Origin: Duganella guangzhouensis
GTDB taxonomy: Bacteria > Pseudomonadota > Gammaproteobacteria > Burkholderiales > Burkholderiaceae_D
NCBI RefSeq assembly: GCF_009674535.1
Contig: NZ_WKJK01000009.1
Span: 28,099 to 60,098 of the forward strand
Direction of reading: 5' to 3'
Length of the DNA: 32,000 nucleotides
The notes beneath the pieces were generated by a model. It did not search any database and was not told where the DNA came from. It was given only the letters and a program-made list of their open reading frames with translations. The position numbers and the translations under genes were made by a program. Positions 3,002 to 25,426 of the stretch are shown here, piece by piece (position 1 is the first letter of the stretch; every line of letters starts with the position of its first letter).

Positions 3002-3027
3002 TGATCTGATTTGGTTTGAAACGATAT

Positions 3028-5023: not shown

Positions 5024-5036
5024 CAAGCCATTCTAT

Positions 5037-6221: not shown

Positions 6222-6234
6222 TGCAGGCTGCACA

Positions 6235-6299
6235 AAATACTGTATGAACGTCTAGTCGATTATACAGTATTTCATACAGTTATATTGATCGACAATATA
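6235..6299. promoter_or_regulatory. Inverted-repeat cluster plus a TATAAT box upstream of the integrase gene
   Basis: There is an 11-bp perfect inverted repeat: AAATACTGTAT (6235-6245) and ATACAGTATTT (6262-6272). A minus-strand TATAAT (plus-strand attata, 6259-6264) overlaps the right arm. A second inverted repeat is TATATTG-n5-CAATATA (6281-6299). The direct repeat GTCGATTA occurs at 6255-6262 and 6309-6316. Confidence 0.35.
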
Positions 6300-6338
6300 G
6301 GTAGTAATGTCGATTAGACTGGGCTACCAGAATTCATG

Positions 6339-7504: not shown

Positions 7505-7576
7505 GTTAAAACCAAGGTTAAAACTAAGTAATGTTAAGTATATTTAACATTATAGCTGTAGTCGCGGCAATTCCAA
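7505..7576 (-). promoter_or_regulatory. Putative sigma70 promoter with overlapping palindromic operator for the XRE/AbiEii operon
   Basis: On the minus strand the promoter reads TTGGAA (7571-7576), a 16-nt spacer, then TATAAT (7549-7554). A perfect 9-bp inverted repeat, TAATGTTAA (7529-7537) - n6 - TTAACATTA (7544-7552), overlaps the -10 box. Two more direct GTTAAAAC copies sit at 7505-7512 and 7517-7524, next to the start codon. Confidence 0.5.
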
Positions 7577-7627
7577 GCCCTTGTTTCATCTTAGGTCGCG
7601 CGTCCGATATATATCGCGTTATTGTCA

Positions 7628-8614
7628 TCAAGCGAGACTTGCCAGTTCATATAGTTCTCGCGCAAATTCAGGCAGTAGCACCAATGACTCATGTTCTATC
7701 CAGCGTTGGCTGGTAACCAGTTCATGCAATATCGGCCCAGACAGTAACGACGCCGGCAGGTCCTGCACTGGCCACGGCTGCGGTAGCGGCAACGCATGAG
7801 TAGATAGCAACGTGCCGGCCGCGCGGGGAATCCATGGCGCAGGTCGCCTCCCGTCGGCAGCACAGCGCAAAGATAAGCCTATGCGTAAGCCATTGGGGTC
7901 GAGATCGGCGAAGTGCAACCACGGAATATTGTCGGGTAAGCGGGCGATGAACTTCGTTGCCAACCCTGCATTCCAGCCCGGCGCCTGCAGCATCAGTACG
8001 GAGGGCACAAGAGGAAAGTCCACAAAAGCGCCCAGGTTTTCCACCGTGAGGATCAATCGCGGCATAACGCCGGCCAGCTGCCACTCCCCTGTCAACGCCC
8101 GCTCCGGTATCGATACCTCGCCCAGTAACGCCAAGCAGGCGTCCAACTCCATTCTGCTCCCTGCCCCCACCATCTCCAAGCCCGCGTTTGGTCGCAGGCG
8201 CAATACCTCATCGGTCGTCAACAGTACGCCTTCAGGAGGCGCGCGCTGGCCCGACTTGGAATGCGCGCCGGCCCACGCCGCCCACGTTTTGCGATTCAGC
8301 CGGCTGATGCCCGCCGGCAGTATTAGCGATGATCGCCGCTGCGCCCGCAACGCGGCCGTCGAAATGCTCTGCGGGTTGGCGGAAAACGCCGCTTCCACTT
8401 CCGGCAGTTGCGGCCACCGCTGCAGCAGATAGCAGCGCAGCACGTCCACCTTCTCGGCGTGTAGCTGATATTCTCCACTGCGGCGAGTTGGCCCGATCAG
8501 TCCAAGCTGCTCAAGTTGCAGCAGCCACGATGCGGCCGCCTTCGTGCTTGTCAACCGACGTGTGAGCAATAGCCGCAAGGCCCCTGCCCGCACAGAATCA
8601 TCATCCCAGTTCAT
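7628..8614 (-). CDS. mksG: JetD/MksG-like Toprim-domain protein (putative nuclease subunit of the Wadjet/MksBEFG system)
   Basis: The ATG at 8614-8612 overlaps the mksB-like stop (8613-8611) as ATGA, giving 328 aa; the longer track ORF is an upstream extension. The C-terminal motifs are ILTVENLGAFVDF (Toprim Glu), GWNAG, WLHFADLDPNGLRIGL (DxD) and RWIEHESL. From memory these parallel the DUF2220/JetD C-terminal domain pattern VENxxxF ... WGDxDxxGxxI ... LEQE. Confidence 0.72.
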   Translation of the reverse strand: MNWDDDSVRAGALRLLLTRRLTSTKAAASWLLQLEQLGLIGPTRRSGEYQLHAEKVDVLRCYLLQRWPQLPEVEAAFSANPQSISTAALRAQRRSSLILPAGISRLNRKTWAAWAGAHSKSGQRAPPEGVLLTTDEVLRLRPNAGLEMVGAGSRMELDACLALLGEVSIPERALTGEWQLAGVMPRLILTVENLGAFVDFPLVPSVLMLQAPGWNAGLATKFIARLPDNIPWLHFADLDPNGLRIGLSLRCAADGRRPAPWIPRAAGTLLSTHALPLPQPWPVQDLPASLLSGPILHELVTSQRWIEHESLVLLPEFARELYELASLA

Positions 8615-11600
8615 GCGCTCATGCGAGTGCCGCGGATGGTGACATATTCCTCCCTCCCCCGCAGACTGCGCTGGAGCTGAAACACCGTGGATCGCCGCGG
8701 CTTGTCCAAGCCGGGGGCCGCTACCAGCGCCTGCACGTCCATGCGTTGGCAAAACTCCGTCAGGGTATCGAGTGCGGATTGATCAAGCCGGTTTGCCTCA
8801 TCCAGCAGAATTTGTTGCATGGCATAGCCGGCAGCGCCGGACAGGCGATTCGCTTCATCATTCCACGTGCGCAAGATCATAATGAGCACTGCCGCGCCCA
8901 CTCCGATCGCCTCACCTGTCGACAGGCCGTCGGTCGCTTCCCATTTACCGTTCAGACGTTGGACTTCAAGATGCAGGCGCAGATAGTTGCGATAATCGAG
9001 TAATTTCGTACCCTTGATGGTTCCGCCCGTTTCGCGGTGATACATTTGCGCCAGCGTTTCTTCCAGCGGTAAGCCAGAATCAAACAACGACAGCTGGTTA
9101 TGCTGTCGCAGACAGTTCAGCATCGTCTCCATGTCCTCCGGCTGACTGGACTTGATCGTCAGGCCCTGTATCGATCCGAAGCGGACCTGCTCCAGCTCAT
9201 GACTAAGGCGGTTGACCAGCGCTCTTGCTGAGCGCAGACGCACGCTAATGCCATCCGCCAAGCCGGACGAGCGGTTCCGCATGTCTTGTTCCTGCACCAG
9301 CAAAGTACGTCGCAACTCGCCCAATTTTTCGGTCATTTGCGCCAGTGCCAGTTGAGGATCGTCGGCGGTGGCAATGGTACGCGGAATCCGCTGCTCGATA
9401 TGCAGCCGCACTCGCTGCCAAGCGTGCAATGTCTGGATCGCCCTGCGCTTGCCGGCATCCTCGGCAAATCCTTCAATACGCTTCACCTTTTCCAGCACGT
9501 CGGGATATGACCTCAGACGCTCCAGCAAGATCCCCTGCTGCTCCTGAGACGCGTGAAAAGCGTTAATAGGGCTTCCGGGCGGCAAATGCTTTTGCCGATT
9601 GGCCGTAGTGTCAATTTTTCCATGCAGGCCCAACTCGTCCACCACGCGCTGCAACTCGCGCTTCGCCTGGCGCTCGCCCCGCAACACCGACAACTGCTGG
9701 GTGGCCGCCTTGTCCTGCGCCGCCATCACGTCAGTCAAGCTGCCAAGTAAAGTGACCGCCTCAATGTGCTGCTTGTTGGCAGCTTCGCGCGCCGGCGTCA
9801 GCTGCGCCAGCAGGGCACGAAGGCGTTCCAGGTGGCGCCGAGACAAGCACACTTCGTCGGTGCTGCCGGTGGCGCCGGTGGCGGCCAGTTCTTGCTGAAG
9901 GGATAGGCACTGCGCCTCTTTCGCTTGTAGGTTGCCCTGTTGCAGCGCGTTACTGGTTGCTGCTGAGCGCGTGAGTTCCCGCGCTTCCTTCAGTTGGCCC
10001 CGGCTGATATCCAGTAGTGTCTTCGCTGGCGTAAGCTTTTTTTTCAGGGCGTCGATCACACTCCCCTGTTCATGGTACTGCCGCTCGTCGTCGTCACGGT
10101 CCAGATGATCGATCACGCTCAGCAACCGCTGCAGCGCATCGCGTTGCCGCGCAAGATGTGCGCGGCTGGAGGTCAGCCGTGCCATTTGCTGTTCCAGCGC
10201 TTGCAGCTGGCCGGCCACAGGCACCGCCGCCAAAATCGGCAATTCTGCCAAGATCTGCGTCACCGCATCGCCGTGCTGTCGCAGCCATGCGCGCGCCTCC
10301 TGGCCCGCTTTCAGCTCACGTTCCAATTGCAACACCGTTTGCGCAAACAACGGTGGATCCAGCAAACTGCGCCGCGACTCCAGCTCGACCAGTCGTCCAC
10401 GGCGGTGATCGGCGCGGACGGCCTGCTCGCGCAAGCTGTCCGCCCGCGCCTGCAAGGTTGCAATGGTCTGGGTGAGCGTCCTCACTTCTACCTGCAAGGC
10501 GTGATAAGCTGGTTCGGGGTTCGGCTCCCAGGCAGCGCTGCCGAGCGCCAGCCAGTCCGATGCGAGACCGAGACTCCGCTGCAGCGTACGCGCCTGCTCA
10601 TGCAGGCCTGCCAGCGCCGCTTCGAGCATGGTGACATCGTTCTTCAGCCGGGTCATCTCCAGCTGGCGCGCGCGGCGCCCCAGCACCGGTCGCTCGGGCC
10701 GGCGCGTGAGCCGTGCCAGGAGTTGTGGCAACTTGCCTTGCGTGACCAGCTCGCTATCATCAAGACTGATGGCATCGAGCGATTGCCGGGCCAGTTGTTC
10801 AGACATGAAAAGCAGGGTATCCGGGCGATCGCCGAGCTCTGCCGCCAGACGGGCCGCATGCGCCGGCTGGTCAACCACGATGGCATCTGCGAACAGGCCC
10901 AGCCGTGCTTCAGTGGTGGCCGCCTCCCCTGCGGCCAGATCATCAAAACGTTGGGCCAGCAACGAGCCTTCGACATGGGCCGCGACCGTGGCGATACGCG
11001 GGTCCAGCGTGCCGGTGCTACTTTCCAGCTGACCTATTCGATGACGCAGCAGATATAAATCCTTTTCGGCCACGCCGCGGTGTTCCTGCACCACGAATTG
11101 CTCCTGCCGCTTGAGATCAGCCATGCGCTGGACTTCGGCTGCCGATGTCAGCGGGGACCACGCCGTGTCAAGTGCCGCCAGCTCGGCACGGAAGTTACTC
11201 GCCAACTGGTAGCAGCGCAGCGCTTCCTGCAGCGTCGGCAACTTGCCTTTCACTTCCAGCAAGCGCTCCTGACGCGTTGCCAGCTCAATGCCCAATGCAT
11301 TTTGCTCCGTCTGGTTTTTAGCCAGTTCCGCATGAACCATGGCCTGCGCGTCGCTCAACTCGGCACCGCTATGAATACCCAATTTTTCCGCCTGCTGACG
11401 AACCGCCCGCTGTTCGCCAGCAGTATTGCGGGCGTATGCGAGATCGTGCTCCAGCCTGTCAATAGCATCGGCAGCGACAAGTTGTTCGCGCCGCCGTACC
11501 TCCAGCGCCATCGCGTAGGCATGCGCGCCCTGCATGGACGGTGGCGTTTTCGATTGCGCCCGCGCCAACTTGCTGATTTTGGCGTACAAATTTTCAAATC

Positions 11601-13014
11601 GCTCCCGTTGCTGGTCAAACGCATCGAAGCGCGCCTGCGCATCGGTCTGGCGCAATGTCGCCACCTCGTACTGCACATCGACCACGTTCTTGATGGCTGC
11701 TGCGGTGTGCTGGTCTACACGCAGTGGCACCATCACCGCCTGGGCTGCGGCCCAGTGCTCCCGTGCGATACGCAACTCCGTCACGCGCCGTATCAATCCT
11801 TCATAGGCTTGCTGAGTGTTGCCCAATTCTTCGGCCAAGCGCGTGTGCTCATCCTCCGCGCGCTGCTGCACCAGCATGGCCTGCCTTTCCGCAAGCTCAT
11901 ATTGTTCACATTGAAGGCGGGCAGCTGCGGCAGACTGCGTCAGCTCGGCGCGCTCCTCGTCAGCGGTTTGCAGTTGGGTGCGCAGCTTGTGTGCCTGCTC
12001 CTTGCTCTGCAAGTCAATGGACGCGGCCTGCGCCTGCTGCTCAGTAGTGCTGAGTTGCAGGCTTAGCGAGTCCACCAGCTCCTGTAATCCCGCGGCCTTT
12101 TCGGTATCACAGGCATGACGCCTGCGCACCTGCTTGGCCAAGCAGGCTTGCTGACGCCAGTTGCCGAGCTCCTGCTCGTATCGGCCCAGTGCGCCGAACA
12201 GCGCAAACGATGTCATCTTCCAAGCGGCATCAAACAAGCCACTGATTTCGGCATGGGCTTTTTCAGCTTCGTCCAGCTGACCACGGGTAATACGGCATTG
12301 TTCAAGCGCGTCGCGCATCAATACGGTACGGCGCTCAAGCGTGGCATCTTCCAGCAGCAGATAATCGCGCAGGCCGGTCTGGATCAGGCTGGCCAACGCG
12401 GAGCCTTGCATCGAGGTCGACAACACCCGGTAAAACCGTTCCTGCTCCTCGTGTGTGGTCATAGGCAAGGGGGTAATGCCGAGATCGAACAGCGATTTCA
12501 TGTACTCGGCCAAGGTCTTGCATATGGTCAGCTTTCCGCCACGAAAGTTGATTTGATCTCGCAACGCGTTCAGTTGCGGGATCACGCTGCGTTCTCCATC
12601 ACGCACCAGCAGGATCTCGTACGGACTGGCTTCGGTCGGCACGTCTTCAATAATGAAACTCTTCACATCGATGGCCGGCATAGCTCCCCGCAGCAGGGCC
12701 ACGCCGGCCCATATACTCTTGCCACGCGGAGTGATCCACTCGATCACGGCATAACTGATGCCCTGCTCACCGAGCCGCCCCCACAAACCGCCATCACCGC
12801 GCGTGGCACTCACGGCACCGTTGATGTTCTTGAACTCCAGCAGGCGCAGGTTGGGCAAAATCGCGGTGACAAATGCCGCCATGACCGTAGTCTTCCCCGA
12901 GCCATTCTGGCCCTCCAGACCAGTCACGTGGCGGTCCAGGTCAAAACAGTGAAATACGATCCCCTTCCAGTTGGCAATTACCAGCCGTCTTGCATATGTG
13001 CGATACAGTTTCAT
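8611..13014 (-). CDS. mksB: MukB-like SMC ATPase (MksB/JetC subunit), 1467 aa
   Basis: The N-terminal head is LVIANWKGIVFHCFDLDRHVTGLEGQNGSGKTTVMAAFVTAILPNLRLLEF, with the Walker A at 12886-12912. From memory this is close to the E. coli MukB N-terminus. Long Q/A/E/L/R-rich coiled coils follow. A non-coil hinge-like block lies at about 10650-11020 (TLDPRIATVAAHVEGSLLAQRFDDL...DAIVVDQP...RRPERPVLGRRARQLE). The C-terminal head is LSTGEAIGVGAAVLIMILRTWNDEANRL...QILLDEANRLDQSALDTL (signature-like motif plus Walker B). An SD (GGAGG) precedes the ATG. Confidence 0.92.
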   Translation of the reverse strand: MKLYRTYARRLVIANWKGIVFHCFDLDRHVTGLEGQNGSGKTTVMAAFVTAILPNLRLLEFKNINGAVSATRGDGGLWGRLGEQGISYAVIEWITPRGKSIWAGVALLRGAMPAIDVKSFIIEDVPTEASPYEILLVRDGERSVIPQLNALRDQINFRGGKLTICKTLAEYMKSLFDLGITPLPMTTHEEQERFYRVLSTSMQGSALASLIQTGLRDYLLLEDATLERRTVLMRDALEQCRITRGQLDEAEKAHAEISGLFDAAWKMTSFALFGALGRYEQELGNWRQQACLAKQVRRRHACDTEKAAGLQELVDSLSLQLSTTEQQAQAASIDLQSKEQAHKLRTQLQTADEERAELTQSAAAARLQCEQYELAERQAMLVQQRAEDEHTRLAEELGNTQQAYEGLIRRVTELRIAREHWAAAQAVMVPLRVDQHTAAAIKNVVDVQYEVATLRQTDAQARFDAFDQQRERFENLYAKISKLARAQSKTPPSMQGAHAYAMALEVRRREQLVAADAIDRLEHDLAYARNTAGEQRAVRQQAEKLGIHSGAELSDAQAMVHAELAKNQTEQNALGIELATRQERLLEVKGKLPTLQEALRCYQLASNFRAELAALDTAWSPLTSAAEVQRMADLKRQEQFVVQEHRGVAEKDLYLLRHRIGQLESSTGTLDPRIATVAAHVEGSLLAQRFDDLAAGEAATTEARLGLFADAIVVDQPAHAARLAAELGDRPDTLLFMSEQLARQSLDAISLDDSELVTQGKLPQLLARLTRRPERPVLGRRARQLEMTRLKNDVTMLEAALAGLHEQARTLQRSLGLASDWLALGSAAWEPNPEPAYHALQVEVRTLTQTIATLQARADSLREQAVRADHRRGRLVELESRRSLLDPPLFAQTVLQLERELKAGQEARAWLRQHGDAVTQILAELPILAAVPVAGQLQALEQQMARLTSSRAHLARQRDALQRLLSVIDHLDRDDDERQYHEQGSVIDALKKKLTPAKTLLDISRGQLKEARELTRSAATSNALQQGNLQAKEAQCLSLQQELAATGATGSTDEVCLSRRHLERLRALLAQLTPAREAANKQHIEAVTLLGSLTDVMAAQDKAATQQLSVLRGERQAKRELQRVVDELGLHGKIDTTANRQKHLPPGSPINAFHASQEQQGILLERLRSYPDVLEKVKRIEGFAEDAGKRRAIQTLHAWQRVRLHIEQRIPRTIATADDPQLALAQMTEKLGELRRTLLVQEQDMRNRSSGLADGISVRLRSARALVNRLSHELEQVRFGSIQGLTIKSSQPEDMETMLNCLRQHNQLSLFDSGLPLEETLAQMYHRETGGTIKGTKLLDYRNYLRLHLEVQRLNGKWEATDGLSTGEAIGVGAAVLIMILRTWNDEANRLSGAAGYAMQQILLDEANRLDQSALDTLTEFCQRMDVQALVAAPGLDKPRRSTVFQLQRSLRGREEYVTIRGTRMSA

Positions 13015-13026
13015 CTCAACCTCCGG

Positions 13027-13686
13027 TCAAGTGTCAGGGTCGGCTTCGTCATCGTCTTCTTTAATCTGTCCTTCGGCAATCAGGCGGCCCAGCGCCAGTT
13101 CCAGCTCCTCGGCGCCGCGCACCGGATCGGCAAAGCGCATCACAGCCGACAGCGGCACCACCACACCCAGTTCGCCACGGCCTTCGCGTCGCACGAACCC
13201 CAGCCGCTCCAGCGTCCGTAGCGCCATGGCAAATGCTTCGCGCAATTTACGCGCATCCTGGCCCAGGTCCTTGCCGCGCCTTCTGCCGGCCAGCCGTATC
13301 AGTCCTTGCTCGCCAAGTAATTGCTCCATCAGCCCGAAGATAGCGAGATCCGGTATCCGGTGATTGGTTTCCAACCATTTGTGATCCAGTCGCATCAGGG
13401 CCAGGGTCTGGCCGGTCAGCATTTCCATGACAGACAACTTGCGCAGTCCCAGCGGTGGCGGCACCGCCAGCCGGTCGGGCAGCAGATAGAAGTAGCCCTC
13501 GCTCCCCTGCAGCAGGGCGACGCTGAAGTAACTGTAAAAGCGTTCCATCAGCTTGCTCGTACTGCTGAGAAAATCAAACAGCGCGGTATCATAATCGGGG
13601 CCGATATGTCGGCCGCGGCGCAAGGCAAGGTCGGCGCGCGCGAACATCGGGTCCTCGATCACCTCTTCCAGGGTGTGATAGATCAT
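13027..13686 (-). CDS. mksE: MukE-like KITE subunit (MksE/JetB)
   Basis: The ATG at 13686-13684 overlaps the upstream stop as ATGA, giving 219 aa. The EGYFYLLPDR motif resembles MukE EGFFYLRPR, and the acidic tail is EDDDEADPDT. The gene sits between the kleisin-like and SMC-like genes, in the mukF-mukE-mukB order. Confidence 0.8.
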   Translation of the reverse strand: MIYHTLEEVIEDPMFARADLALRRGRHIGPDYDTALFDFLSSTSKLMERFYSYFSVALLQGSEGYFYLLPDRLAVPPPLGLRKLSVMEMLTGQTLALMRLDHKWLETNHRIPDLAIFGLMEQLLGEQGLIRLAGRRRGKDLGQDARKLREAFAMALRTLERLGFVRREGRGELGVVVPLSAVMRFADPVRGAEELELALGRLIAEGQIKEDDDEADPDT

Positions 13687-15053
13687 TCCGGCTCCTTCAC
13701 GTTGAACGGTGGTGCGCGCTGCAGCTGCGGCAACCCGGCCGGCAGCCGCAGTTTGAGCGTTTGCGCTTCCAGCCGCAGCGACAGCGCAATCCATGGCTGG
13801 GGCAACATCGTCTCATGCGTGCTACCGTTTTTCAGCAGCTCGGGCGTGACGTGAGATAGCAGAGTGAAGCGCTCTTCGTCGGTAAAGTCGACGGCGATGT
13901 CCCGAACCGCCGCCACAATGTCGATATCGCCTTCGCCGAGTAGCCGTTGGACCAGTGCCGCCACCGCCTGTTCGACACGGTCGGGCTCAGCTTCGACGCG
14001 CTCCTGCAATCCTTGAGCAAGCAAGATGTCGTTTGGCACCGCGAGCGAAACGGTGGCCTCGGGCTTCAGCACCTCGCGCATGTGACGGAACGGTTCCGGC
14101 GCCACCAGTACCAGACCGAATGGGCGATCCTGGAACTGGCGTATTTGCTCGACCAGCCGGCCGCGCAATCGGTTATCGGGGTCAGTCTGAACAAAGTAAC
14201 GGATATAGATCTGGACGTTGGCGTAATATTGGGCCCAGTCTTCGTGCCGGCGCGCGCCCCAGGCGGCCAGCCGCAACAACTGGTTCTGCGCGCGCTCCAC
14301 CACTGGCGACAGTTCAGCGTGGCTGACCGCGAGCTCAGACAAACTCAACAATTGCCGCTGCAGCGACTCCACGTGTTCGCACAACACCGCGTTCAGCTCG
14401 CTCAGCGTCCGGTCGACGCTGCTCACCATCTCCTTGCAGCTGTCTGCAGCAACCAACCACTCACTGTCGAACAATTCGGTAATTCGCTGGCGCAGCCGCT
14501 TATGGGCGGCGTCCAGTCCCAGTTGCCGCTTCTCGACCGCAGCCATCATTTCCAGCATCACGTCGCGCATCGGGAAGATGACTTTCATTTCCCAGTGTTC
14601 ATGCGTTCCGCCCTCTGCTGCTGCCGCAAGCACCTGGGCCAGTTCGGTACGCATGCGCATCAACATGAATTCCAGACTGCGCCGGGTCAGCGTGCGTTCG
14701 TTCTGCATGCCTTCCGCCAGCGCCATTCCCAGCGGCGACAATGCGTACTCGCCTTCGTAAGACCATCCGCCGGAGTCGATGCGCAATAGTACGCCTTGCG
14801 CATGGAGACGGGCGATGATGAACGTGGCGCGCTGCGTTTCGGTGTCTGTTCCGGCGTTGGCCAATTCAAACACTACGGCATACACTCGGCGCAACGACTG
14901 CTCATCCAGGCTAAGGATAGTGGTATGTTGCAGGTACGCATGTATCCCTGCGATAAACGCGGTCTCTTCCCGGCCCAAATGCAGCGCACAGCCGCTGAGC
15001 CAGACTTCGGTAATCACACCGGCGACCGAAGGCCGCTCCTCATGCTGTTCCAT
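13683..15053 (-). CDS. mksF: MukF-like kleisin subunit (MksF/JetA)
   Basis: 456 aa from ATG 15053, with an SD (GGGGA) 5 nt upstream; GTG 15065 is also possible. Several blocks parallel my recollection of E. coli MukF: YALSPLGMALAEG, AAAEGGTHEHWEMKVIFPM and SEWLVAADSCKEMVSSVDRTLSELNAVL. It is the first gene of the operon. Confidence 0.75.
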   Translation of the reverse strand: MEQHEERPSVAGVITEVWLSGCALHLGREETAFIAGIHAYLQHTTILSLDEQSLRRVYAVVFELANAGTDTETQRATFIIARLHAQGVLLRIDSGGWSYEGEYALSPLGMALAEGMQNERTLTRRSLEFMLMRMRTELAQVLAAAAEGGTHEHWEMKVIFPMRDVMLEMMAAVEKRQLGLDAAHKRLRQRITELFDSEWLVAADSCKEMVSSVDRTLSELNAVLCEHVESLQRQLLSLSELAVSHAELSPVVERAQNQLLRLAAWGARRHEDWAQYYANVQIYIRYFVQTDPDNRLRGRLVEQIRQFQDRPFGLVLVAPEPFRHMREVLKPEATVSLAVPNDILLAQGLQERVEAEPDRVEQAVAALVQRLLGEGDIDIVAAVRDIAVDFTDEERFTLLSHVTPELLKNGSTHETMLPQPWIALSLRLEAQTLKLRLPAGLPQLQRAPPFNVKEPE

Positions 15054-15159
15054 GCATATCCCCACGCTATGTCAAAACGCTTGCACACTTTGCAATAAGC
15101 TAAAGTCTCCGCTCACGTCTGTCGCACGGTTTGATACAACGCAAGCGGACTCTCGATGC

Positions 15160-17381: not shown

Positions 17382-17543
17382 CACCGAAGTTGCCGCACGG
17401 AAATAATTTAGCAGCGCCCGGATTCCTGTTGATTCGTGCGCTGTTAAAACTTTTTCTATAGCAAAATGCGCGTCGCTCGCGGATTGACCGCTAGGCAACT
17501 TCCACTCTTCCAGCCACTACCAGCCACAAGCCAAGGGGATAGC

Positions 17544-20500
17544 ATGAGAAAACTTCCATATCGACAGCGATCACTGGAAACCTTTCAACGTTTCACCACA
17601 ACAGGACTTCCACTCGCCATCAGCCTGACACTAGCCGCCTGTGGCGGTGGCAGTGACGGCACCCAGGACACCGCCAGCGCCGGCCCGGCGCGCATGATGA
17701 GCGCGCTCGCGGCCAGTCCGGAGGCGGTGCTGACACCGGTCGCGGCCACCGCCAGCGGTGCCGAACGCGGCGATTTGTCGGCCGCCGCCGCCATCGACCA
17801 TGATCTGACCACCCGCTGGAGCAGCCTGTTCAGCGACACCCAGTGGCTGACGCTGGACTATGGCAGCAGCAAGGTCATCAACCACGTCCACATCGATTGG
17901 GAAAACGCCCACGCCACGCAGTATCAGTTGCAGGTGTCGGACGATAACCTGAACTGGACCACCATCAAGACGGTGGACAACAGCCAGGGCGGCAGCGAGG
18001 ATTGGACCGGCTTGAACGGCCAGGGCCGCTACCTGCGCATGCAGGGCGTCAAGCGTTCGACCAACTACGGTTATTCGATCTTTGAAATCCAGGCCTATTC
18101 CGGCGGCAGCGTGTCGACCGATCCGGTAACCACCGAGCCGGTGACGGTCGACCCGACCAAGCCTGGCGTGGCGATCAAACCGGTGACGGCGACCTCGTCG
18201 GCGCTGGAAAACCCGGGCAATTCGGCCACCAATGCCATCGACGGCAGCACCACCACGCGCTGGGCCAGCGCGTTTGAGGACGGCGCCTGGATTCAGTTCG
18301 ACTTCGGCGCCAAGACCCAGGTCGGCTATATGAAGCTGCTGTGGGAGAACGCTTACGCCAAGCAGTACAACCTGCTGGTCTCAGACGATGGTCAGGCGTG
18401 GACGCAGATCCGCTCTGTCAGCAATGGCCTGGGCGGCACCGAGGAGTTCTTCAACCTGGGCGTCAACGCGCGCTATATTCGGTTGCAGGGCGTGGCGCGC
18501 GCCACGCAGTATGGCTACTCGCTGTTTGAGGTGTCGTTCAAGACGCCGGGTAGCGACAACTCGCTGTCCTCGTCAACCACGTCGGCGTTCAAGTTCCCGG
18601 CCAGCGGCGCCGGCTGGGCGCCCTTGCCTGCCGCCGCCGAGCCGCTGGAATCGCTGCAGTTCACGCTGGCCGACGGCACCCTGGTCACCCGCTTCGGCGC
18701 ACGCGGCCTGGCGCGTCACGGCCGCGAACGTGGCGAGGAATGGAATGAAATCGGCTATGGCCTGAACGAAACGGTGGACCCGGTCACCGGGCTGCCGGTC
18801 GATAAAGGTCCGGGCAATTATCTGACCTTTGTGCCGCAGTACTTCAAGAACCGCACCTGGGGCATGGAGATCATCGACAACAGCCGCGTGGCTGGCGTGA
18901 CCAAGCCGCAACTGATCGTCAACCAGTACTCCACGGTCGATTTCCTGCAAGGTGGCGTGGCCTTCTTCCGCGCCATCGACCGGCCGGGCGTGACCGGCTA
19001 CGGCTGGATGGCGCCGGGCCAACTGGTGGACGACAGCGTCAAGGTCTGCAAGCCGATCGCCTACCCGGCCAATAACAAGCTGGCCACCACCAACGGCATC
19101 AACGGCGCCTGCACCTTGCTGGTCAAGGAGTATCCGGGCATGACGGCGCTGGATACCAATGGCTTCCCGATCGAGGGCAAGAACATCGCCGCGCGTCCGT
19201 TGGTACAGGGCGATGTGATCGAAGTGTCGCCATCGATGTTCTCGACCACCGAGTCGATGCTGGCCAAGGGCGACAACGGCGGCATCCGCTACTACTCGTA
19301 TGAGTGGGTGTATGTGGTGGGTCAGGGTCTGAAGCCATGGTATGGCGTGCAGCCGCGTCTGAATTCGGTGCCGCTGCCGGCGGAAACGCTGTCCGGCGGC
19401 CTGGGTTCGGTGTCGTACAACTATTCGGACAACGCGCTGTTCATGTTCCAACAGCCGCAGACCAATGTCGGCATGCAGAATATGCAGCGCTTCGTCGAGG
19501 GGCGGCGCCTGTTCCATACCAACTTCACCACCGGCGACCATAACGAGCCGGGGAATGATCGTTATGATGCGGCGGTCGGCCTGCAAGGACAGCTGTTCAA
19601 TCAGTCGTCGTGCTTTGCCTGCCACGTGAATAACGGCCGCAGTGTAGCGCCGACCACGCTGAATCAGCGTCTGGACAGCATGTCGGTGCGGGTGGCGTCC
19701 ACCAGTGCGGCCGGTGTGCAGTCGCCACATCCGCTGTATGGCACCACGGTGCAGATGAATGCCCTGTCCTCTTCCGGAACGCCGCAGAACTGGGGCACCG
19801 GCGTGCGCGTCGGCAGTTTCGAAAGCACGATCAAGACGCTGGCCGATGGCAGCACGGTGGAACTGCGCAAGCCAGTGCTGGCGTTTGAAGGTCCGGTGCC
19901 GGATACGGTATCGCTGCGCGCCGCCCAGCCTATCATCGGCGCCGGGCTGCTGGAAGCGGTAGCGGAAGCTGACATCCTGGCGCGTGCCACCGGCGCGGCG
20001 GACGTGGATGGCGTCAAAGGTGTGGCGAACTATGTCTACGATCCGGAGAGTGGCGCGGTGCGTCTGGGCCGCTTCGGCTGGAAGGCATCCAAGGCGACCT
20101 TGCGCCAGCAGGCCGCGTCCGCGCTGCTGCAGGATATGTCGGTGGTCTCGCCGGTGTACCGCAACCGCTCGTGCAATACCGATCCCGCCGGTTGCCAGGC
20201 CGCCGCCGCGCAAAAAGGCATCACCGAAGATGACCTGCAAGCGCTGTCGCGCTATCTGGCGCTGGTGGCCGTGCCGGCACAACGCAGCCTGGCCAGCGGC
20301 TTCCCGAAAGGCGTGGCGCCGATCGACGAGATGAATGTGGATCCGGTCAAGGTGGCGGCGGGCGCCAAGGTGTTCACCACCATGCGCTGCTCGGCGTGCC
20401 ACACGGTGGAGATGAAGACTGGCAGCGGCCATCTGTTTGCAGAACTGCGTAACCAGACCATTCGTCCGTATTCGGATCTGCTGCTGCACGACATGGGCAC

Positions 20501-20756
20501 TGGATTGGCCGACAAGTTCGTCGAAGGCCAGGCCAAGGGCAATATGTGGCGTACCGCGCCGCTGTGGGGCATCGGTTATACCGACAAGGTGATGGGCAAC
20601 AGCACCAAGGTCGGCTACCTGCACGATGGCCGCGCGCGTAATCTGACCGAGGCTGTCATGTGGCACGATGGCGAGGCGGCCAAATCGCGCCAGCGCTTCG
20701 AGAATCTGTCGAAGACTGACCGCGAGGCGCTATTGGCCTTCCTGAAATCGCTGTAA
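17544..20756 (+). CDS. Lipoprotein with two F5/8 type C (discoidin/CBM32-like) domains, an unassigned middle region and a C-terminal di-heme DUF1111-type (cytochrome c peroxidase-like) domain
   Basis: The ATG at 17544 follows an SD (AAGGGGA). A lipobox is present (SLTLAAC|GGG). Two tandem discoidin domains lie at about 17727-18101 and 18171-18542 (AIDHDLTTRWSS...YSIFEIQAY and AIDGSTTTRWAS...YSLFEVSF). Two CxxCH heme c sites are present: CFACH at 19611-19625 and CSACH at 20388-20402. The tail RTAPLWGIG...YLHDGRA...AVMWHDGEA is typical of DUF1111 di-heme proteins. Confidence 0.82.
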   Translation: MRKLPYRQRSLETFQRFTTTGLPLAISLTLAACGGGSDGTQDTASAGPARMMSALAASPEAVLTPVAATASGAERGDLSAAAAIDHDLTTRWSSLFSDTQWLTLDYGSSKVINHVHIDWENAHATQYQLQVSDDNLNWTTIKTVDNSQGGSEDWTGLNGQGRYLRMQGVKRSTNYGYSIFEIQAYSGGSVSTDPVTTEPVTVDPTKPGVAIKPVTATSSALENPGNSATNAIDGSTTTRWASAFEDGAWIQFDFGAKTQVGYMKLLWENAYAKQYNLLVSDDGQAWTQIRSVSNGLGGTEEFFNLGVNARYIRLQGVARATQYGYSLFEVSFKTPGSDNSLSSSTTSAFKFPASGAGWAPLPAAAEPLESLQFTLADGTLVTRFGARGLARHGRERGEEWNEIGYGLNETVDPVTGLPVDKGPGNYLTFVPQYFKNRTWGMEIIDNSRVAGVTKPQLIVNQYSTVDFLQGGVAFFRAIDRPGVTGYGWMAPGQLVDDSVKVCKPIAYPANNKLATTNGINGACTLLVKEYPGMTALDTNGFPIEGKNIAARPLVQGDVIEVSPSMFSTTESMLAKGDNGGIRYYSYEWVYVVGQGLKPWYGVQPRLNSVPLPAETLSGGLGSVSYNYSDNALFMFQQPQTNVGMQNMQRFVEGRRLFHTNFTTGDHNEPGNDRYDAAVGLQGQLFNQSSCFACHVNNGRSVAPTTLNQRLDSMSVRVASTSAAGVQSPHPLYGTTVQMNALSSSGTPQNWGTGVRVGSFESTIKTLADGSTVELRKPVLAFEGPVPDTVSLRAAQPIIGAGLLEAVAEADILARATGAADVDGVKGVANYVYDPESGAVRLGRFGWKASKATLRQQAASALLQDMSVVSPVYRNRSCNTDPAGCQAAAAQKGITEDDLQALSRYLALVAVPAQRSLASGFPKGVAPIDEMNVDPVKVAAGAKVFTTMRCSACHTVEMKTGSGHLFAELRNQTIRPYSDLLLHDMGTGLADKFVEGQAKGNMWRTAPLWGIGYTDKVMGNSTKVGYLHDGRARNLTEAVMWHDGEAAKSRQRFENLSKTDREALLAFLKSL

Positions 20757-20761
20757 CGACA

Positions 20762-20787
20762 AAGCCGGGCACCTGCCCGGCTTTTTT
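20762..20787. terminator. Bidirectional rho-independent terminator between convergent genes
   Basis: The sequence is AAGCCGGGC-acct-GCCCGGCTT, a 9-bp stem followed by TTTTTT on the plus strand. The complement reads AAAAAAGCCGGGC-aggt-GCCCGGCTTTGTCGTT on the minus strand. It sits exactly between the stop at 20754-20756 and the stop at 20787-20789. Confidence 0.8.
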
Positions 20788-22742
20788 CATTTTGCCGCGT
20801 TGACGATGGCCGTGATCACCGCCGGATACACCTGTGCGCCAGTGGACCGGTTGAACAGGCCGGATTGATGGTTGGTGGTCGGACCATTGTCCCAGTACAC
20901 CGGCACCATCCCGTGCTGGTAGGCTGACTTGGTGATGTACTGGTCCCAGTACTGACGGTATTTGCCGGCCGCATCGTACTCGGTGCGCTGGCTGGCCGCG
21001 TACTCCCCCAGAATCACCGCCACGCCCTTGTCGATGAAGCGGGTCTTCATCTTCTGGAACTGGGCATCGACGTAGGATTCGTTGGCCCAGGTTTCGGTGG
21101 CCGCAGTGTCGGTGGCGATGCTGCCCCATTGCCAGATCGCGCTGCTGGTGTTCAGCGTGAAGTTGTATGGATCGTAGTCGTGCACCTCCATCATCAGGCG
21201 GCTGGTGGCGCTGTCGGTTGGCACCGTATTGGTCGCGTAGGTGTAGTCGATGTTGGTGTTGTAGCCCTGGACGATCAGGTGGCGGCTGGCGTTGTTGCCG
21301 CCGGTCGCGCGCACCGTGTTGACGAACACTTGATTGAAGCCGTTCTGCACCGCGATGTTTTCGGCGGTTGGCGCGGTGTAGACGCCATCCACCATCACTT
21401 CGTTGGTGCCGGCGAACAGCAGGTAATCGTCGTAGTACTGGAAGGTGGTGGCGATCTGGGTCCAGAACTTGGCCAGGCGCGCATTGGCTGTCGATTGCGC
21501 GGCGTAGGTTGGCTGCAGCCAGCCGCCGTCCCAGTGCACATTAATCATCACATACAGGCCAGCGCTGCGGGCCGCGTCCACCACTTCCTTCACGCGCGCC
21601 ATCCAGCTGGCGCTGATGTTGTAGTTAGCGTCCGCGTACTGACTCCACGATACCGGAATGCGCACGGTCTTGAAGCCGGCCGCCTTCACGGCGGTGAACA
21701 GCGCCTGATTGGCCGGCGGGTTGCCCCAGGCGGTTTCGCCCCCAATGGCTTCCAGCGAATTCCCCAGATTCCAGCCCGGCGACATCAATGCGGACAGCTG
21801 CACGCTGGTCAGGCTGCGCATGGCGCCCACGCGTACGGCGGTGGCGGAACCGGAGCTGGAACCGCCGCTGCTGGTGGTGAATTTGACCCAGTACCAATAC
21901 GGTACGCCGATGGTGGGCGTGGTATCGGTGTAGGTGGTGGCGCTGGCCGCCGGAATCGCAACCCGGGTACGGCCGGTGGCGTCGCTGTCGGTGTCGCGGT
22001 AGATTTGCAGGCCGGTGACGGTGCCGGTGACGGTCCACGTCAGCTTGATGTTGTCGGACGAGCCGGCGGCGCTCAGGCAGACGGTGGCGCCGCCCCCGGT
22101 GCCGCAACTCTGCGCCTGCGCTGCGCCGCACACCGCCAACATGGCCAGCAACGCAGCCGGCAGTTGCAGCCTGCGGCGAGCGCGCCACACCAGCAGTGTC
22201 AGCCCCGCCATCAGCATCACGACCGAACCCGGCTCCGGCACCGGCGCCGCGCTTTGCGTGATGAAGTCATCCATCACAAACCAGCCGTCGTCACGGGTGA
22301 TGCTCAGGCGCGAAACATTGCTGAAATTCGCCGCCACCCACTGGTAGCCCAGGCCGATGCTGACATTGCCGGTGCTGCCGATCACGTGGTCGGCAGCATC
22401 GTAGGCGGTAATGTTGATCCAGCTCGCGACCGCGCCGTTGGTGTTGGGCGCTGCGAACCACGCGCCAGCAAAGTTAAAGGCGGTGGCGCTGCTGATGCCC
22501 AGATTGTCCACGCCATAGCCGTTGGTGACAAAGGAGATGCCGGAGTGTGCGCCGTTGTCATAGCCTTCGACGGTGGTATCGCCGTAGTACCAATCCTCGC
22601 TCCACTGCAGCCCTGCATAGGGGCTGAGCAGCGCGGTCAAATCGCCATCCGCGTGCAGGTCTTCAAAGTCCACCGCTGCTTGTGCCTGGCCCACCAGCAT
22701 CAGCGTCAGGCCGGCCACCAGGCCGATCAGAAATTTTTTCAT
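20787..22742 (-). CDS. Composite ORF: signal peptide + PEP-CTERM-type domain protein, continuing in frame into a second signal peptide, an Fn3-like linker and a GH5 cellulase/endoglucanase
   Basis: The ATG at 22742 is preceded by an SD (GGGGAG) and follows the upstream gene by 13 nt. The signal peptide is MKKFLIGLVAGLTLMLVGQAQA. The PEP-CTERM module is VPEPGSVVMLMAGLTLLVWRARRR (about 22170-22238). It is followed by LQLPAALLAMLAVCGAAQA|QS, and then by GH5 motifs (WNLGNSLE, VMINVHWDGGW, LLFAGTNEV, VILGEYA). Confidence 0.8.
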   Translation of the reverse strand: MKKFLIGLVAGLTLMLVGQAQAAVDFEDLHADGDLTALLSPYAGLQWSEDWYYGDTTVEGYDNGAHSGISFVTNGYGVDNLGISSATAFNFAGAWFAAPNTNGAVASWINITAYDAADHVIGSTGNVSIGLGYQWVAANFSNVSRLSITRDDGWFVMDDFITQSAAPVPEPGSVVMLMAGLTLLVWRARRRLQLPAALLAMLAVCGAAQAQSCGTGGGATVCLSAAGSSDNIKLTWTVTGTVTGLQIYRDTDSDATGRTRVAIPAASATTYTDTTPTIGVPYWYWVKFTTSSGGSSSGSATAVRVGAMRSLTSVQLSALMSPGWNLGNSLEAIGGETAWGNPPANQALFTAVKAAGFKTVRIPVSWSQYADANYNISASWMARVKEVVDAARSAGLYVMINVHWDGGWLQPTYAAQSTANARLAKFWTQIATTFQYYDDYLLFAGTNEVMVDGVYTAPTAENIAVQNGFNQVFVNTVRATGGNNASRHLIVQGYNTNIDYTYATNTVPTDSATSRLMMEVHDYDPYNFTLNTSSAIWQWGSIATDTAATETWANESYVDAQFQKMKTRFIDKGVAVILGEYAASQRTEYDAAGKYRQYWDQYITKSAYQHGMVPVYWDNGPTTNHQSGLFNRSTGAQVYPAVITAIVNAAK

Positions 22743-22755
22743 GGTCTCCCCTTTT

Positions 22756-25242
22756 TTAGTTACATGCATCGCCGGTGACGACCGGGATGGCCGAGCCACT
22801 GACCGTCATCCCGAATTCCACTGTATTGCCAGGATAAATGTCGTGATTCCAGCTCTGATTAGGTGTCGCTGTATAGGTCGGGCTGCTGCCTGTAACGGCG
22901 GCGTTCCAGTACCCTTGCACCACTGAGTTGTCTGTATAGGTCCAGGTGACCGACCAGCCGCTGATAACGGTGCTGCGGTTGTTGGTGATGCGTACCGCCG
23001 CGTTGTAGCCGCCCTGCCATGCTGCCGTGACCACGTAGCTGCATTGGTTGACCGGCTGGCTGGTGCCAGGACCGTTCGCCACCGCCGTCACAGCGACGTC
23101 ACCGCTGTCGTCCACCTGGCCGTAGGCGATGCCACGCCCGGCGGTACTCATGTAGACGCGGCCATACACATTGGTGTCGCCATTGATCATGTGCGCATTG
23201 CCGCTGCCGCCGTACTGGTGAGCGTCATCGTTGACGCGTACCCAAGTGGCACCGGCGTCGGTGGAACGCAACACGCCCTGCGTGGTGCCGACCGTACCGA
23301 TCATGTACAGCGTGGGATAGGACGATGCCGGCGCCGCCTTGCCGAAGCCAATCGCGCCGCATTGATTGACACTGGCGATTTTGCTGAAGCTGGCGCCGGA
23401 ATCGGTGGAACGCGTCAAGCCGCCGCCGTTCAGGCACACCCACACGTCGCCTTCCCTGCCCGGCGCCACACGAATGATGCTGGAGCCGCCGGAACCCGGA
23501 CTACCCTTGGCCACAAAACTGACGCCGCCATCGACGCTGGCCAGCAGGCTGCCGCCGTCATACGCATAGAACTTGGCCGGATTGACCGGATCGGCCACCG
23601 GGCGCGCATTGTTAACCGCCAGGCCGGTGACCGGCGTCCAGCTGCCACCGTAGTTGGTCGAGCGGTAGCTGGTGGTGGAGTCCGCAGGGCTGTGCAGCAG
23701 CACATAGCCATCGGCTGACAGCGCCAGTTGCCCCTGCGCGCCATTAATCACAGCCGATTTGTTCCAACTGGCGCCACCGTTGCTGCTGTAGTACAGCGAC
23801 GATCCGGCACGTGCCATGATGCGGCCATCCAGCGCGGCCACCGCCAGTCCGCTGGTGGTGCCCATCTGTGGACTGTGCTGGATGCCGTATTGCGCCGGAT
23901 CGGTGTTGAGGAAGCCATCGAAGTCGCCGATCACCGACACCAGCGGGCCATTCGGCACGGCCTCGAAGTTGAACGGCACCGTTTCCTCAATGCCGGCCAC
24001 GTCAAAGGCCCAGGTGGTGGTCGCGGCGTCGATATTGGCGGTCTTGAACAGGCCATTGCCCGAGCCTACCCACACGTTTTTAGCGTCAAACGGATCGAAT
24101 TCAATCGCTCCGGCCCAATGGATGGAAGCGCCATTGCTGATCCAGCCGACGCCTGCGCCATCCAGAGCGAAGCCGCGCGCCACCACGTCGGTCCAGCTGC
24201 GGCCCGCGTCCAGCGAAGTGTAGACGCGATCGCCGTAGCTGTTGGCGCCCTGCGGCAGCCAGGTGTTGATGGTGGACGCCACCAGGTGCTTGGGATTGGC
24301 CGGGTCCACGCTGATGCCGCTGTAAGGATGGGCCGCGCCAGCCGGCGTGATATTGGCCCAGTTGCCGCCGACCGCGTTGTATTCCCAGATCTGGCCATTG
24401 TCCATCGGCTCACCCGTGACAGGATATGGTCCCGCGCCGTTGGCGTACGTGATGTACAGCTTGCCCTTGGACGAAATCGCGGCGCGCTGCGGCATCAGCG
24501 CGGTGGTCGGGCCGCCCTTCACCGCCGTGAACGTGGCGCCACCGTCGGCGCTGAAGTACAGATTCGGGCCGACCGAGGCTAGCCGCGACACACCGACGAA
24601 AATGCGCTTGGCTGCTCCGGCGGTAGCGCTGGTCGGATCGAGCAGCACGAAGCTGATGCCGTTGTCGTTTGGCGTGGTGGTCAGATCCAGCCCGGCCAGG
24701 CGGTTCCAGGTCGCGCCATAGTCGCTACTCCGGTACAGTCCATTGCGGCGCGTGCCGGTGTACAGGACGTTGCTGGCGCCGGGATCGACCTGCAGCTTTT
24801 CGCCGTTCTGCCGGCCCATGCCATTGCCGTGCGCTTTGAACTGCGACGACACATCGATGACGGTGAAGTTCTTGCCATAGTCGCTCGAGCGCAGGATGGC
24901 GGTTTTACCGTTGCTGAAGTAGCTGGTGCCGGCCAACAGGTAGACGTTGGCGGCATTGCGTGGGTCGACTGCCAGCGATTCGATGCCCAGCAAGCCGATG
25001 TCCGCTTCACCGATCCAGTCGGTGAGTGGAATCCAGCGCGCGCTGTTCTGGTCCCAGCGGTAAGCGCCGCCGACGTCGGTGCGGGCATACACCACACCGC
25101 GCTCCGATTTGCTGGGAATGACGCCTGTGACAAAGCCGCCGCCGCCCATCGCCACCGCGTCCCAGCGGTAGTTCTCCGCTGTACAGGCGAGCGGCATCAC
25201 CAGCGCTGCCATCAGCAGCGCCAAGCCGTGTTGTGCCTTCAT
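22756..25242 (-). CDS. GH74 xyloglucanase-like glycoside hydrolase with a C-terminal CBM2 carbohydrate-binding module
   Basis: The ATG at 25242 is preceded by an SD (GGAGA). The signal peptide is MKAQHGLALLMAALVMPLACTA. The GH74-type N-terminus is YRWDAVAMGGGGFVTGVIPS...VYARTDVGGAYRWD, with repeated Asp-box/BNR-like S.D.G.TW motifs (SSDYGKNF, SSDYGATW, SLDAGRSW, STNYGGSW, STDSGASF, STDAGATW). The CBM2-like tail is CSYVVTAAWQGGYNAAVRITNN...WNAAVTGS...GDAC. Confidence 0.85.
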   Translation of the reverse strand: MKAQHGLALLMAALVMPLACTAENYRWDAVAMGGGGFVTGVIPSKSERGVVYARTDVGGAYRWDQNSARWIPLTDWIGEADIGLLGIESLAVDPRNAANVYLLAGTSYFSNGKTAILRSSDYGKNFTVIDVSSQFKAHGNGMGRQNGEKLQVDPGASNVLYTGTRRNGLYRSSDYGATWNRLAGLDLTTTPNDNGISFVLLDPTSATAGAAKRIFVGVSRLASVGPNLYFSADGGATFTAVKGGPTTALMPQRAAISSKGKLYITYANGAGPYPVTGEPMDNGQIWEYNAVGGNWANITPAGAAHPYSGISVDPANPKHLVASTINTWLPQGANSYGDRVYTSLDAGRSWTDVVARGFALDGAGVGWISNGASIHWAGAIEFDPFDAKNVWVGSGNGLFKTANIDAATTTWAFDVAGIEETVPFNFEAVPNGPLVSVIGDFDGFLNTDPAQYGIQHSPQMGTTSGLAVAALDGRIMARAGSSLYYSSNGGASWNKSAVINGAQGQLALSADGYVLLHSPADSTTSYRSTNYGGSWTPVTGLAVNNARPVADPVNPAKFYAYDGGSLLASVDGGVSFVAKGSPGSGGSSIIRVAPGREGDVWVCLNGGGLTRSTDSGASFSKIASVNQCGAIGFGKAAPASSYPTLYMIGTVGTTQGVLRSTDAGATWVRVNDDAHQYGGSGNAHMINGDTNVYGRVYMSTAGRGIAYGQVDDSGDVAVTAVANGPGTSQPVNQCSYVVTAAWQGGYNAAVRITNNRSTVISGWSVTWTYTDNSVVQGYWNAAVTGSSPTYTATPNQSWNHDIYPGNTVEFGMTVSGSAIPVVTGDACN

Positions 25243-25426
25243 TGATATCGTCTCCGTAGTTTTATAGTTATCGCGCATTAGCACGCGTGAAATTATTCTG
25301 AGACTGGTTTCACGCCGCCGCAATTACGAAAACCGCCAAACGCGGGAACGAAATTTGGCAGAGACCAAGGTTCACAATGCGTGGATGATCTACAATCTGC
25401 TTGCCAATACATCAACAAGAGGAACC

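Follow-up and report, generated by a model that had tools for sequence, protein, structure and literature searches.

PEP-CTERM sorting signals typically sit at the extreme C-terminus of secreted proteins: 87% of PEP-CTERM modules are followed by fewer than 10 residues, with a median of three (Haft 2006, PMC1569441). This work concerns an exception, found in a 32,000-nucleotide stretch of the Duganella guangzhouensis genome (contig NZ_WKJK01000009.1; hereafter, the window). The open reading frame (ORF) of interest encodes a protein that is like the canonical PEP-CTERM/exosortase substrates in having an N-terminal signal peptide, a VPEP motif, a transmembrane helix and an Arg cluster, with profile scores above the curated cutoffs. 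It differs from them in that its PEP-CTERM module lies 460 residues from the C-terminus (the usual median being 2–3) and leads directly into a second export signal and a glycoside hydrolase family 5 (GH5) enzyme. The ORF is a maintained, in-frame fusion of two neighbouring genes that were already translationally coupled; on balance, we think it probable that the precursor is processed into the two ancestral products via a membrane hairpin.

Parts of this arrangement are familiar from other systems. The Bradyrhizobium japonicum FbcH cytochrome b-c1 precursor, reportedly characterized by Thöny-Meyer et al. in 1991, is said to give rise to two proteins from one ORF by way of an internal signal peptide that is cut after a membrane segment. 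FbcH thus resembles the window protein in being a single bacterial ORF that yields two proteins through signal peptidase acting at an internal signal peptide, but the part encoded upstream is polytopic and remains membrane-embedded, and it involves neither a C-terminal sorting signal nor a second processing enzyme. At flavivirus polyprotein junctions (e.g., E/NS1), a stop-transfer helix is connected to a signal helix by a brief turn in the cytoplasm, and cleavage by the host's signal peptidase takes place on the side of the lumen. Here too an anchor-plus-signal hairpin separates two exported domains; however, the setting is viral and the eukaryotic endoplasmic reticulum, and the upstream protein retains its anchor, whereas that of the window protein would be expected to be removed by a sortase-like enzyme. 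General background on the junctions of flavivirus structural polyproteins is available (PMC6756788).

A further likeness, by curated name alone, is to NF033207, the 'midcut-by-XrtH protein' family, whose members are presumably cleaved by an exosortase partway along the chain; to judge from the name, sites of this kind are not new to curators. Against this model the window protein gives no match at E ≤ 1, the chained protein P0272 (see below) scores 17 bits against a cutoff of 45, and a literature search for 'midcut-by-XrtH' found no publication. PEP-CTERM signals, GH5_4 enzymes, internal signal peptides and helical hairpins are all already known; what is new is their combination, and the evidence of selection on it. 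In the literature that could be searched for internal or chained PEP-CTERM signals, we found neither described.

Layout of the fused open reading frame

The ORF occupies window positions 20787–22742 on the minus strand (as do all of its features below), with its ATG at 22742 and its stop codon at 20789–20787, and encodes 651 amino acids. A Shine-Dalgarno (SD) sequence, AGGGGAG (22746–22752), is located within the 13-nt gap after the TAA (22758–22756) of the upstream gene. The duplex energy with the anti-SD sequence at this start is −8.3 kcal/mol in the window and −5.4 to −11.1 kcal/mol across orthologs, and a scan for sigma-70 promoters found nothing above shuffled sequences within the ORF. 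The precursor is presumably translated from this single strong start.

A first-pass annotation, made from the sequence alone, described the ORF as a secreted PEP-CTERM protein that runs on, with no stop codon, into a second signal peptide and a GH5 enzyme, and this layout is borne out. The N-terminal signal peptide (residues 1–22, MKKFLIGLVAGLTLMLVGQAQA|A; 22677–22742) has an MKK n-region, an h-region and an AQA|A cleavage motif; it was judged by inspection and by hydropathy, which resembles that of other signal peptides. Next comes a β-sandwich N-module (residues 23–165; 22248–22676), a domain of ~145 amino acids ending in FVMDDF (residues 155–160), followed by the PEP-CTERM module (residues 168–191, VPEPGSVVMLMAGLTLLVWRARRR; 22170–22241). 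Between the Arg cluster of this module and the second h-region there is no stop codon, and the frame stays open through the former signal peptide of the GH5 enzyme (residues 192–210, LQLPAALLAMLAVCGAAQA, then QSCG; 22113–22169), an Fn3-like segment (approximately residues 211–305; 21828–22112) and the GH5 catalytic domain (residues 330–621; 20880–21755).

The database gene call for this window is P0005, a 474-amino-acid protein that starts at the ATG at 22209–22211 (Met178, inside the PEP-CTERM helix) and drops the N-module. This is inconsistent with NCBI's treatment of sister species, in which the protein is annotated at full length (652–654 amino acids).

An intact PEP-CTERM module in the middle of the protein

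The internal module has the full tripartite PEP-CTERM design: a VPEP motif (22230–22241), a transmembrane helix, GSVVMLMAGLTLLVW (G172–W186; 22185–22229; estimated ΔG ~−0.1 kcal/mol), and the Arg cluster RARRR (22170–22184). A profile search confirmed that the segment from VPEP to RRR is a true PEP-CTERM domain, as the first-pass annotation had held. PF07589 scores 22.0 bits on the full protein and 24.1 on the isolated N-terminal part, both above the gathering cutoff of 20.7; TIGR02595 scores 19.1 bits on the full protein and up to 26.3 on the isolated segment (21.2 was also obtained), all above its cutoff of 16. The match to the NF038129 family PEP-CTERM model, an equivalog, is confined to the C-terminal part of the model and reaches 27–32 bits, versus a required 65.

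The extreme C-terminal position that is usual for PEP-CTERM is not seen in the window module: its 460 downstream residues compare with a median of 2 and a maximum of 32 among stand-alone relatives (112 close family members). Despite its position, the module is not degraded, in contrast to the atypically placed copies that have been described as decaying (Haft 2006, PMC1569441). The internal modules of the fused proteins score 23.8–28.7 bits with TIGR02595, as compared with 19.0–22.8 for the terminal modules of unfused relatives.

The junction carries a second signal peptide

Residues 192–210 align with the signal peptides of unfused GH5 orthologs. In the fused protein, this second signal begins at ORF residue 187–192 rather than at a protein N-terminus, with no conserved start codon of its own before it. 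It borrows its n-region, RARRR, from the PEP-CTERM module, and continues with the h-region LQLPAALLAMLAVCG and the motif AQA|Q, in which small residues occupy positions −3 and −1. Signal peptidase I is predicted to cleave at A210|Q211 (22113/22112), and AQA|Q[SN]CG is invariant across the aligned orthologs.

The two hydrophobic segments of the junction, separated by a net charge of +3 to +4, differ in character. Across the window clade, the first has the summed Hessa-scale ΔG of a competent transmembrane helix (−1.9 to +0.1 kcal/mol). The second scores +5.2 in the window and +3.5 to +5.6 overall, within or near the level of signal peptides on the same scale (those of unfused orthologs give +1.6 to +5.3, and the signal at the N-terminus of the fused protein itself gives +3.4).

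Among fused orthologs, the junction varies in both sequence and length. It evolves fast (dN, the nonsynonymous substitution rate, is 0.28), yet both hydrophobic stretches are retained. The distance from VPEP to QxCG is 129, 123, 135, 144 and 135 nt in the sequences compared, indicating at least four junction indels, all of them multiples of three. The chance of all being in frame is roughly (1/3)^4, or ~0.01.

Distribution, ancestral state and selection

The fusion is found in six species-level Duganella genomes: the window genome, SG902, D. flavida FT135W, CF402, D. radicis and D. hordei. Full-length orthologs from the five other genomes, plus one from a JGI metagenome (P0003), measure 648–659 amino acids, and all are in frame.

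Alignment with orthologous loci, proposed in the first-pass annotation as a check for a stop codon after the Arg cluster, gave a clear result: the stop is absent from all six fused genomes and present in two unfused loci, L001 (from a metagenome) and L009 (Duganella sp. CT11-25). In these two, the same operon contains two genes downstream of a GH74-like BNR/CBM2 gene. The first encodes a PEP-CTERM protein of 199–200 amino acids that ends in ...ARRSSRQP-TGA. The second encodes the GH5 enzyme in the +2 frame, and its ATG overlaps the stop codon of the first (CCATGA; CCATGAAAGGTCATGACATGAAA), such that a 1-nt insertion or a 2-nt deletion at the overlap would join the frames. The SD of the GH5 gene is weak in these abutting pairs (−3.4 kcal/mol, versus −5.4 to −11.1 at the N-module start), as expected for translational coupling. 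Judging from these sequences, the pair of overlapping genes is the ancestral state, and the fusion arose through loss of the intervening stop codon.

L010 (Duganella sp. S19_KUP01_CR8) and L030 (D. violaceipulchra) show a third arrangement, in which the two genes are separated by a small ORF (MPDDRMQTQRVLVVDDNHAAAG...; ~4600–5100 in each locus) that has its own GGAG and looks like a CheY-like receiver domain. A metagenome scan for further junction variants returned two loci only, one stand-alone and one abutting, and no new fused or frame-broken variant.

Neighbour-joining trees were built separately for the GH5 part and the N-module, at the protein and DNA levels, with 200 bootstraps. The window sequence and L003, L004, L006 and L007 form a clade (100% support), and the unfused abutting pair L001/L009 forms a clade of its own (99–100%). 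The fused D. hordei sequence is sister to the unfused L010/L030, with 100% support for GH5 and 74–97% for the N-module. The junctions agree with the trees: in D. hordei (QRRK-MLKPVAF...) the original signal peptide still has its Met-Leu-Lys, and in the window clade (RRR-LQLPAALLAM...) these residues are missing. Since the fused genomes fall into two tree lineages and the junctions concur, the phylogeny indicates that the fusion arose at least twice. Two fusions are preferred on parsimony over one fusion and two fissions, because each fission must recreate both a stop and a start.

Selection was estimated by the Nei-Gojobori method within the fused window clade, where dS, the synonymous substitution rate, is 0.6–0.9. 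The dN/dS values are 0.11 for the N-module (dS 0.86), 0.15 for the Fn3-like segment, 0.076 for GH5 and 0.28 for the first signal peptide; the unfused pair L001/L009 gives 0.19, 0.13 and 0.057. By these estimates, both halves are under purifying selection in the fused clade, and the fusion is evolutionarily maintained.

Proposed processing of the precursor

Membrane proteins follow the positive-inside rule, and signal peptidase I cleavage sites the −3/−1 rule; helical hairpins of N-out/C-out topology are known, for example, from Escherichia coli leader peptidase. In the fused protein, placement of the Arg cluster between two hydrophobic segments would, by the positive-inside rule, produce just such an N-out/C-out hairpin. 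We propose that (i) the N-terminal signal peptide carries the β-sandwich across the inner membrane, (ii) the PEP-CTERM helix acts as a stop-transfer anchor, keeping RARRR in the cytoplasm, (iii) the h-region of the old GH5 signal peptide, using the Arg cluster as its n-region, re-inserts N-in/C-out to complete the hairpin and export Fn3-GH5, (iv) signal peptidase I cuts after AQA210 and releases the enzyme, and (v) exosortase cuts at the PEP motif, freeing or attaching the N-module. The only waste would be the ~40-residue hairpin, and the mature products would be identical to those of the ancestral gene pair. Through the join, the processing enzymes of the cell are probably able to recut the precursor into the two original products; under such a hairpin model, it is because the mature products are unchanged that the fusion would be tolerated, retained and recurrent.

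Several points weigh against this proposal. We infer both cleavages, by signal peptidase I and by exosortase, from the sequence, and the exosortase step assumes that the enzyme accepts a substrate in which a second membrane segment follows the Arg cluster. An AlphaFold model of the full-length protein, built from a five-sequence alignment, has a mean confidence (pLDDT) of 41 and is uninformative with regard to the hairpin. A search of the 32-kb window, which covered the window only, found no exosortase (EpsH/XrtA) gene; the sister genus Janthinobacterium, the sole genus so documented here, has XrtA/PrsK/PrsR and at least 27 PEP-CTERM genes, and Duganella and Massilia encode many PEP-CTERM paralogs. 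The conserved Met175/176 and Val codons in the PEP-CTERM helix could act as internal starts. Finally, the rare long-tailed or non-terminal PEP-CTERM copies have been suggested to be possibly non-functional (Haft 2006, PMC1569441).

Alternative explanations

The first-pass annotation had put forward three readings of the locus. That of a true fusion with a membrane hairpin is the best supported, through conservation, selection, preservation of the frame, and the layout of charge and hydrophobicity; its remaining part, the separation of the halves, is a prediction. That of a recent stop-codon loss or an assembly error survives in one respect: a stop codon was indeed lost, as it persists in L001 and L009. 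Neither a recent date nor an error fits six genomes in two lineages with dS ~0.6–0.9. More broadly, a sequencing or assembly artefact, or a decaying pseudogene left by a recent loss of the stop without function, would not be ruled out by one genome by itself, and long ORFs do arise easily in high-GC DNA; but with six independently sequenced genomes and the P0003 metagenome carrying the fusion, dN/dS at 0.08–0.15 over a dS of 0.6–0.9, junction indels that are all in frame, and two independent origins, we consider it extremely improbable. The remaining suggestion, of two genes overlapping in the same frame, finds little support: the upstream ORF has no stop codon, so its product always includes GH5, and in the window clade the stretch from the Arg cluster to the h-region contains no conserved ATG or GTG start preceded by an SD. 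A related explanation is dual expression from one ORF, in which GH5 is made mainly from a start inside the helix (Met176, Met178 or GTG-encoded Val185; Met194 in D. hordei) as an ordinary secreted enzyme with a long n-region, the fusion being a minor or tolerated by-product. In-frame ATG or GTG codons do occur within the helix in all fused genomes, including the GTG at 22190–22188 to which the first-pass annotation drew attention, and which is V185; in the window clade, the candidate internal starts (Met175/176, Met178 and Val185) are found only there. D. hordei has kept the ancestral ATG, and the window's own gene call begins at ATG 22211. The best SD-like element upstream of Met175/176 is a GGAG within the PEP codons (CCGGAGCC), with a duplex energy of −5.8 kcal/mol. 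However, at ~15 nt this element is too distant from the Met, and any run of codons for P-E-P will inevitably contain it; stand-alone relatives, too, often have the Leu-Met-Leu motif, which is hence not specific to the fusion. Dual expression is also opposed by the lack of any conserved SD-bearing start after the Arg cluster, by the open frame (each ribosome starting at 22742 makes the fusion), by the N-module dN/dS of 0.11 and by the preservation of frame through at least four indels. We consider it unlikely. The simplest reading of the sequence is that GH5 is translated as part of the precursor, as it is strongly conserved yet dependent on the upstream start and on frame continuity.

It could also be that the precursor is not cleaved at all, and that the hairpin serves as a permanent inner-membrane anchor, with a CBM-like (carbohydrate-binding module-like) domain and GH5 on the periplasmic face and the PEP-CTERM module acting merely as a transmembrane segment. 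The topology would be identical to that proposed above, a CBM-like module tethered to a glycoside hydrolase is a common design, and the possible non-functionality of non-terminal PEP-CTERM copies (Haft 2006, PMC1569441) would fit. Yet an inert anchor would have no need of an invariant AQA|Q, of a canonical VPEP and Arg cluster, or of profile scores above those of unfused relatives. The second segment is no more hydrophobic than a cleavable signal peptide, and inner-membrane tethering would probably keep a polysaccharide endo-hydrolase with secreted relatives from functioning. This explanation seems to us distinctly improbable.

A chained PEP-CTERM family with the same junction

Exhaustive searching with the N-module gave 517 representatives, almost all of 180–215 amino acids. 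An exception is P0272 (1519 amino acids), a chain of five units. In units 1–4, VPEP, a transmembrane helix and an Arg cluster run straight into a signal-peptide-like stretch (...PAAARA|D, ...PGASQA|L, ...PPASA|Q and ...PPAAQA|Q), while the last unit ends in an ordinary terminal PEP-CTERM. Five near-identical copies of P0272 occur in independent assemblies (ENA, JGI, Logan), and three relatives, P0395, P0396 and P0397, are 58–68% identical to it and keep the in-frame junctions despite indels. Together, these metagenomic ORFs of 1,123–1,519 amino acids (P0272, L036 686–5245; P0395, L037 447–5006; P0396, L040 1226–5539; P0397, L041 335–4711) contain 4–5 tandem units each. Up to five stretches in each chain are recognized by NCBIfam PEP-CTERM family models, and between one and four, depending on the chain, by the generic TIGR02595 domain. 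The ORFs are stop-free at 71% GC, with a dN/dS of ~0.5. A YhhN-family gene lies downstream at these loci.

The first-pass annotation was correct in calling an internal PEP-CTERM signal unusual (Haft 2006, PMC1569441), yet the same junction recurs four times per protein in the P0272 family and is therefore not a Duganella curiosity. The P0272 chains are unrelated to the Duganella fusion but share its junction, and so the principle may be general. In its strongest form, the junction—PEP-CTERM helix, Arg cluster, h-region and AxA—would be a general, selectable 'self-removing hairpin linker' for secretory polyproteins, cut by signal peptidase I and exosortase, of which the Duganella fusions (two origins) and the P0272 chains are independent instances. 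We put this forward tentatively, as a possibility that falls somewhat short of even odds.

The two fusion partners

An AlphaFold2 model of the N-module has a pLDDT of 78, with 87–96 in the core. The top Foldseek matches are CBM4-2 (including engineered xyloglucan binders), CBM22 and CBM29, at TM-scores of 0.4–0.5, and a PDB sequence search gave no match. A glycan-binding role for the modelled fold is plausible; given the weak fold matches and the absence of a PDB sequence match, 'CBM-like' remains a suggestion. The N-module family (263–517 members, depending on the search) consists of ~200-amino-acid PEP-CTERM proteins of Oxalobacteraceae. At ~19 loci in Massilia, Pseudoduganella, Telluria and Rugamonas, stand-alone N-module homologs end a few residues past the Arg cluster, with no GH5 nearby. 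L005 (4001–4612) and L038 (2501–3100) contain stand-alone orthologs of 199–203 amino acids that are 79–80% identical to the N-module of the window and have no GH5 in ~2.5–4 kb downstream; thus, even in close relatives the N-module is not obligatorily paired with GH5. Four long N-module homologs considered as possible analogues of the fusion (P0295, P0304, P0371 and P0377) were rejected, having either a 'PEP' without a transmembrane helix or a normal, terminal PEP-CTERM. Six stand-alone PEP-CTERM proteins of ~200 amino acids (P0125, P0128, P0130–P0132 and P0135) are labelled 'endoglucanase' by JGI, and none has a catalytic domain. The label looks like one transferred via fused proteins.

The C-terminal half had been described as an Fn3-like segment followed by GH5. 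The GH5 assignment is firm (PF00150, E = 2e-54), and the catalytic Glu motifs N447-E448 (NE448) and G579-E580 (GE580) are invariant in the ortholog alignment. The Fn3-like label is more weakly backed, by a match to the PelI N-terminal region (E = 3e-8), a faint match to PF25833 in one ortholog and low-confidence predicted β-strands; Cys213 and Cys222 in this segment are invariant in the ortholog alignment (A1). The solved structures closest to the C-terminal 340 residues (E = 1e-78 to 1e-88) are CjGH5D (5oyc, E = 2e-88), BoGH5A (3zmr) and Paenibacillus XG5 (2jep), so that the enzyme is closest to the GH5_4 xyloglucanase type, with a predicted substrate specificity. Like these endo-xyloglucanases it keeps the catalytic NE and GE motifs, and it adjoins a GH74-like/CBM2 gene; it differs from them in its PEP-CTERM N-module, which is present neither among solved GH5_4 enzymes nor among ~2,800 homologs outside this Duganella group. 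Three close GH5 relatives with short gene calls (P0006, P0007 and P0012) were considered as hidden fusions and rejected, being truly stand-alone genes in other contexts.

Genomic neighbourhood

The operon partner upstream of the fused ORF (22756–25323, minus strand) encodes a BNR-repeat (GH74-like) protein with a C-terminal CBM2, as identified by Pfam matches. The gene is syntenic in fused and unfused relatives, and is the same neighbour in L001 and L002. The locus is best explained as a xyloglucan-degradation operon, in which a ~200-amino-acid PEP-CTERM β-sandwich protein and a GH5_4-type enzyme became fused.

Directly after the stop codon of the fused ORF lies a GC-rich hairpin terminator (20761–20784), common to a convergent gene (17466–20756, plus strand) that encodes a 1,096-amino-acid protein with two F5/8 type C (discoidin) domains, a di-haem oxidoreductase/peroxidase (DHOR) domain and a cytochrome c domain. 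Further away, positions 5037–15065 (minus strand) contain a phage-type integrase (5037–6233), an AbiEii-type toxin (6339–7067), an ORF of 374 amino acids, and a MukF/MukE/MukB-like (MksBEF-type) condensin trio (8611–15065), which may together form a mobile or defence island. At 569–4362 (plus strand), a gene for a pyrroloquinoline quinone (PQQ)-dependent dehydrogenase (810 amino acids) is followed by one for an OprB-family carbohydrate-selective porin; this pair fits a sugar-scavenging neighbourhood.

Implications

There are practical consequences for annotation. Gene callers split or shorten ORFs of this kind, as in the window, where the call lacks the N-module, and functional labels pass from one fusion partner to the other. 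Position is what defines a C-terminal sorting signal (LPXTG, PEP-CTERM and PGF-CTERM, among others), and copies lying inside a protein are discounted as noise in annotation pipelines and reviews; the internal copy described here is conserved and under selection, and it recurs.

If the junction is a general linker, no linker residue would be left on either product, and exosortases would not depend on the sorting signal being C-terminal; the fused proteins are a natural experiment on whether exosortase requires a free cytoplasmic tail. The junction could also be used as a scar-free linker for co-exporting two proteins at a fixed stoichiometry. In evolutionary terms, the locus illustrates that a single frameshift is enough to fuse a coupled gene pair whose stop and start overlap, a step that would be harmless where the tail of the first protein and the signal peptide of the second form a correctly oriented hairpin.

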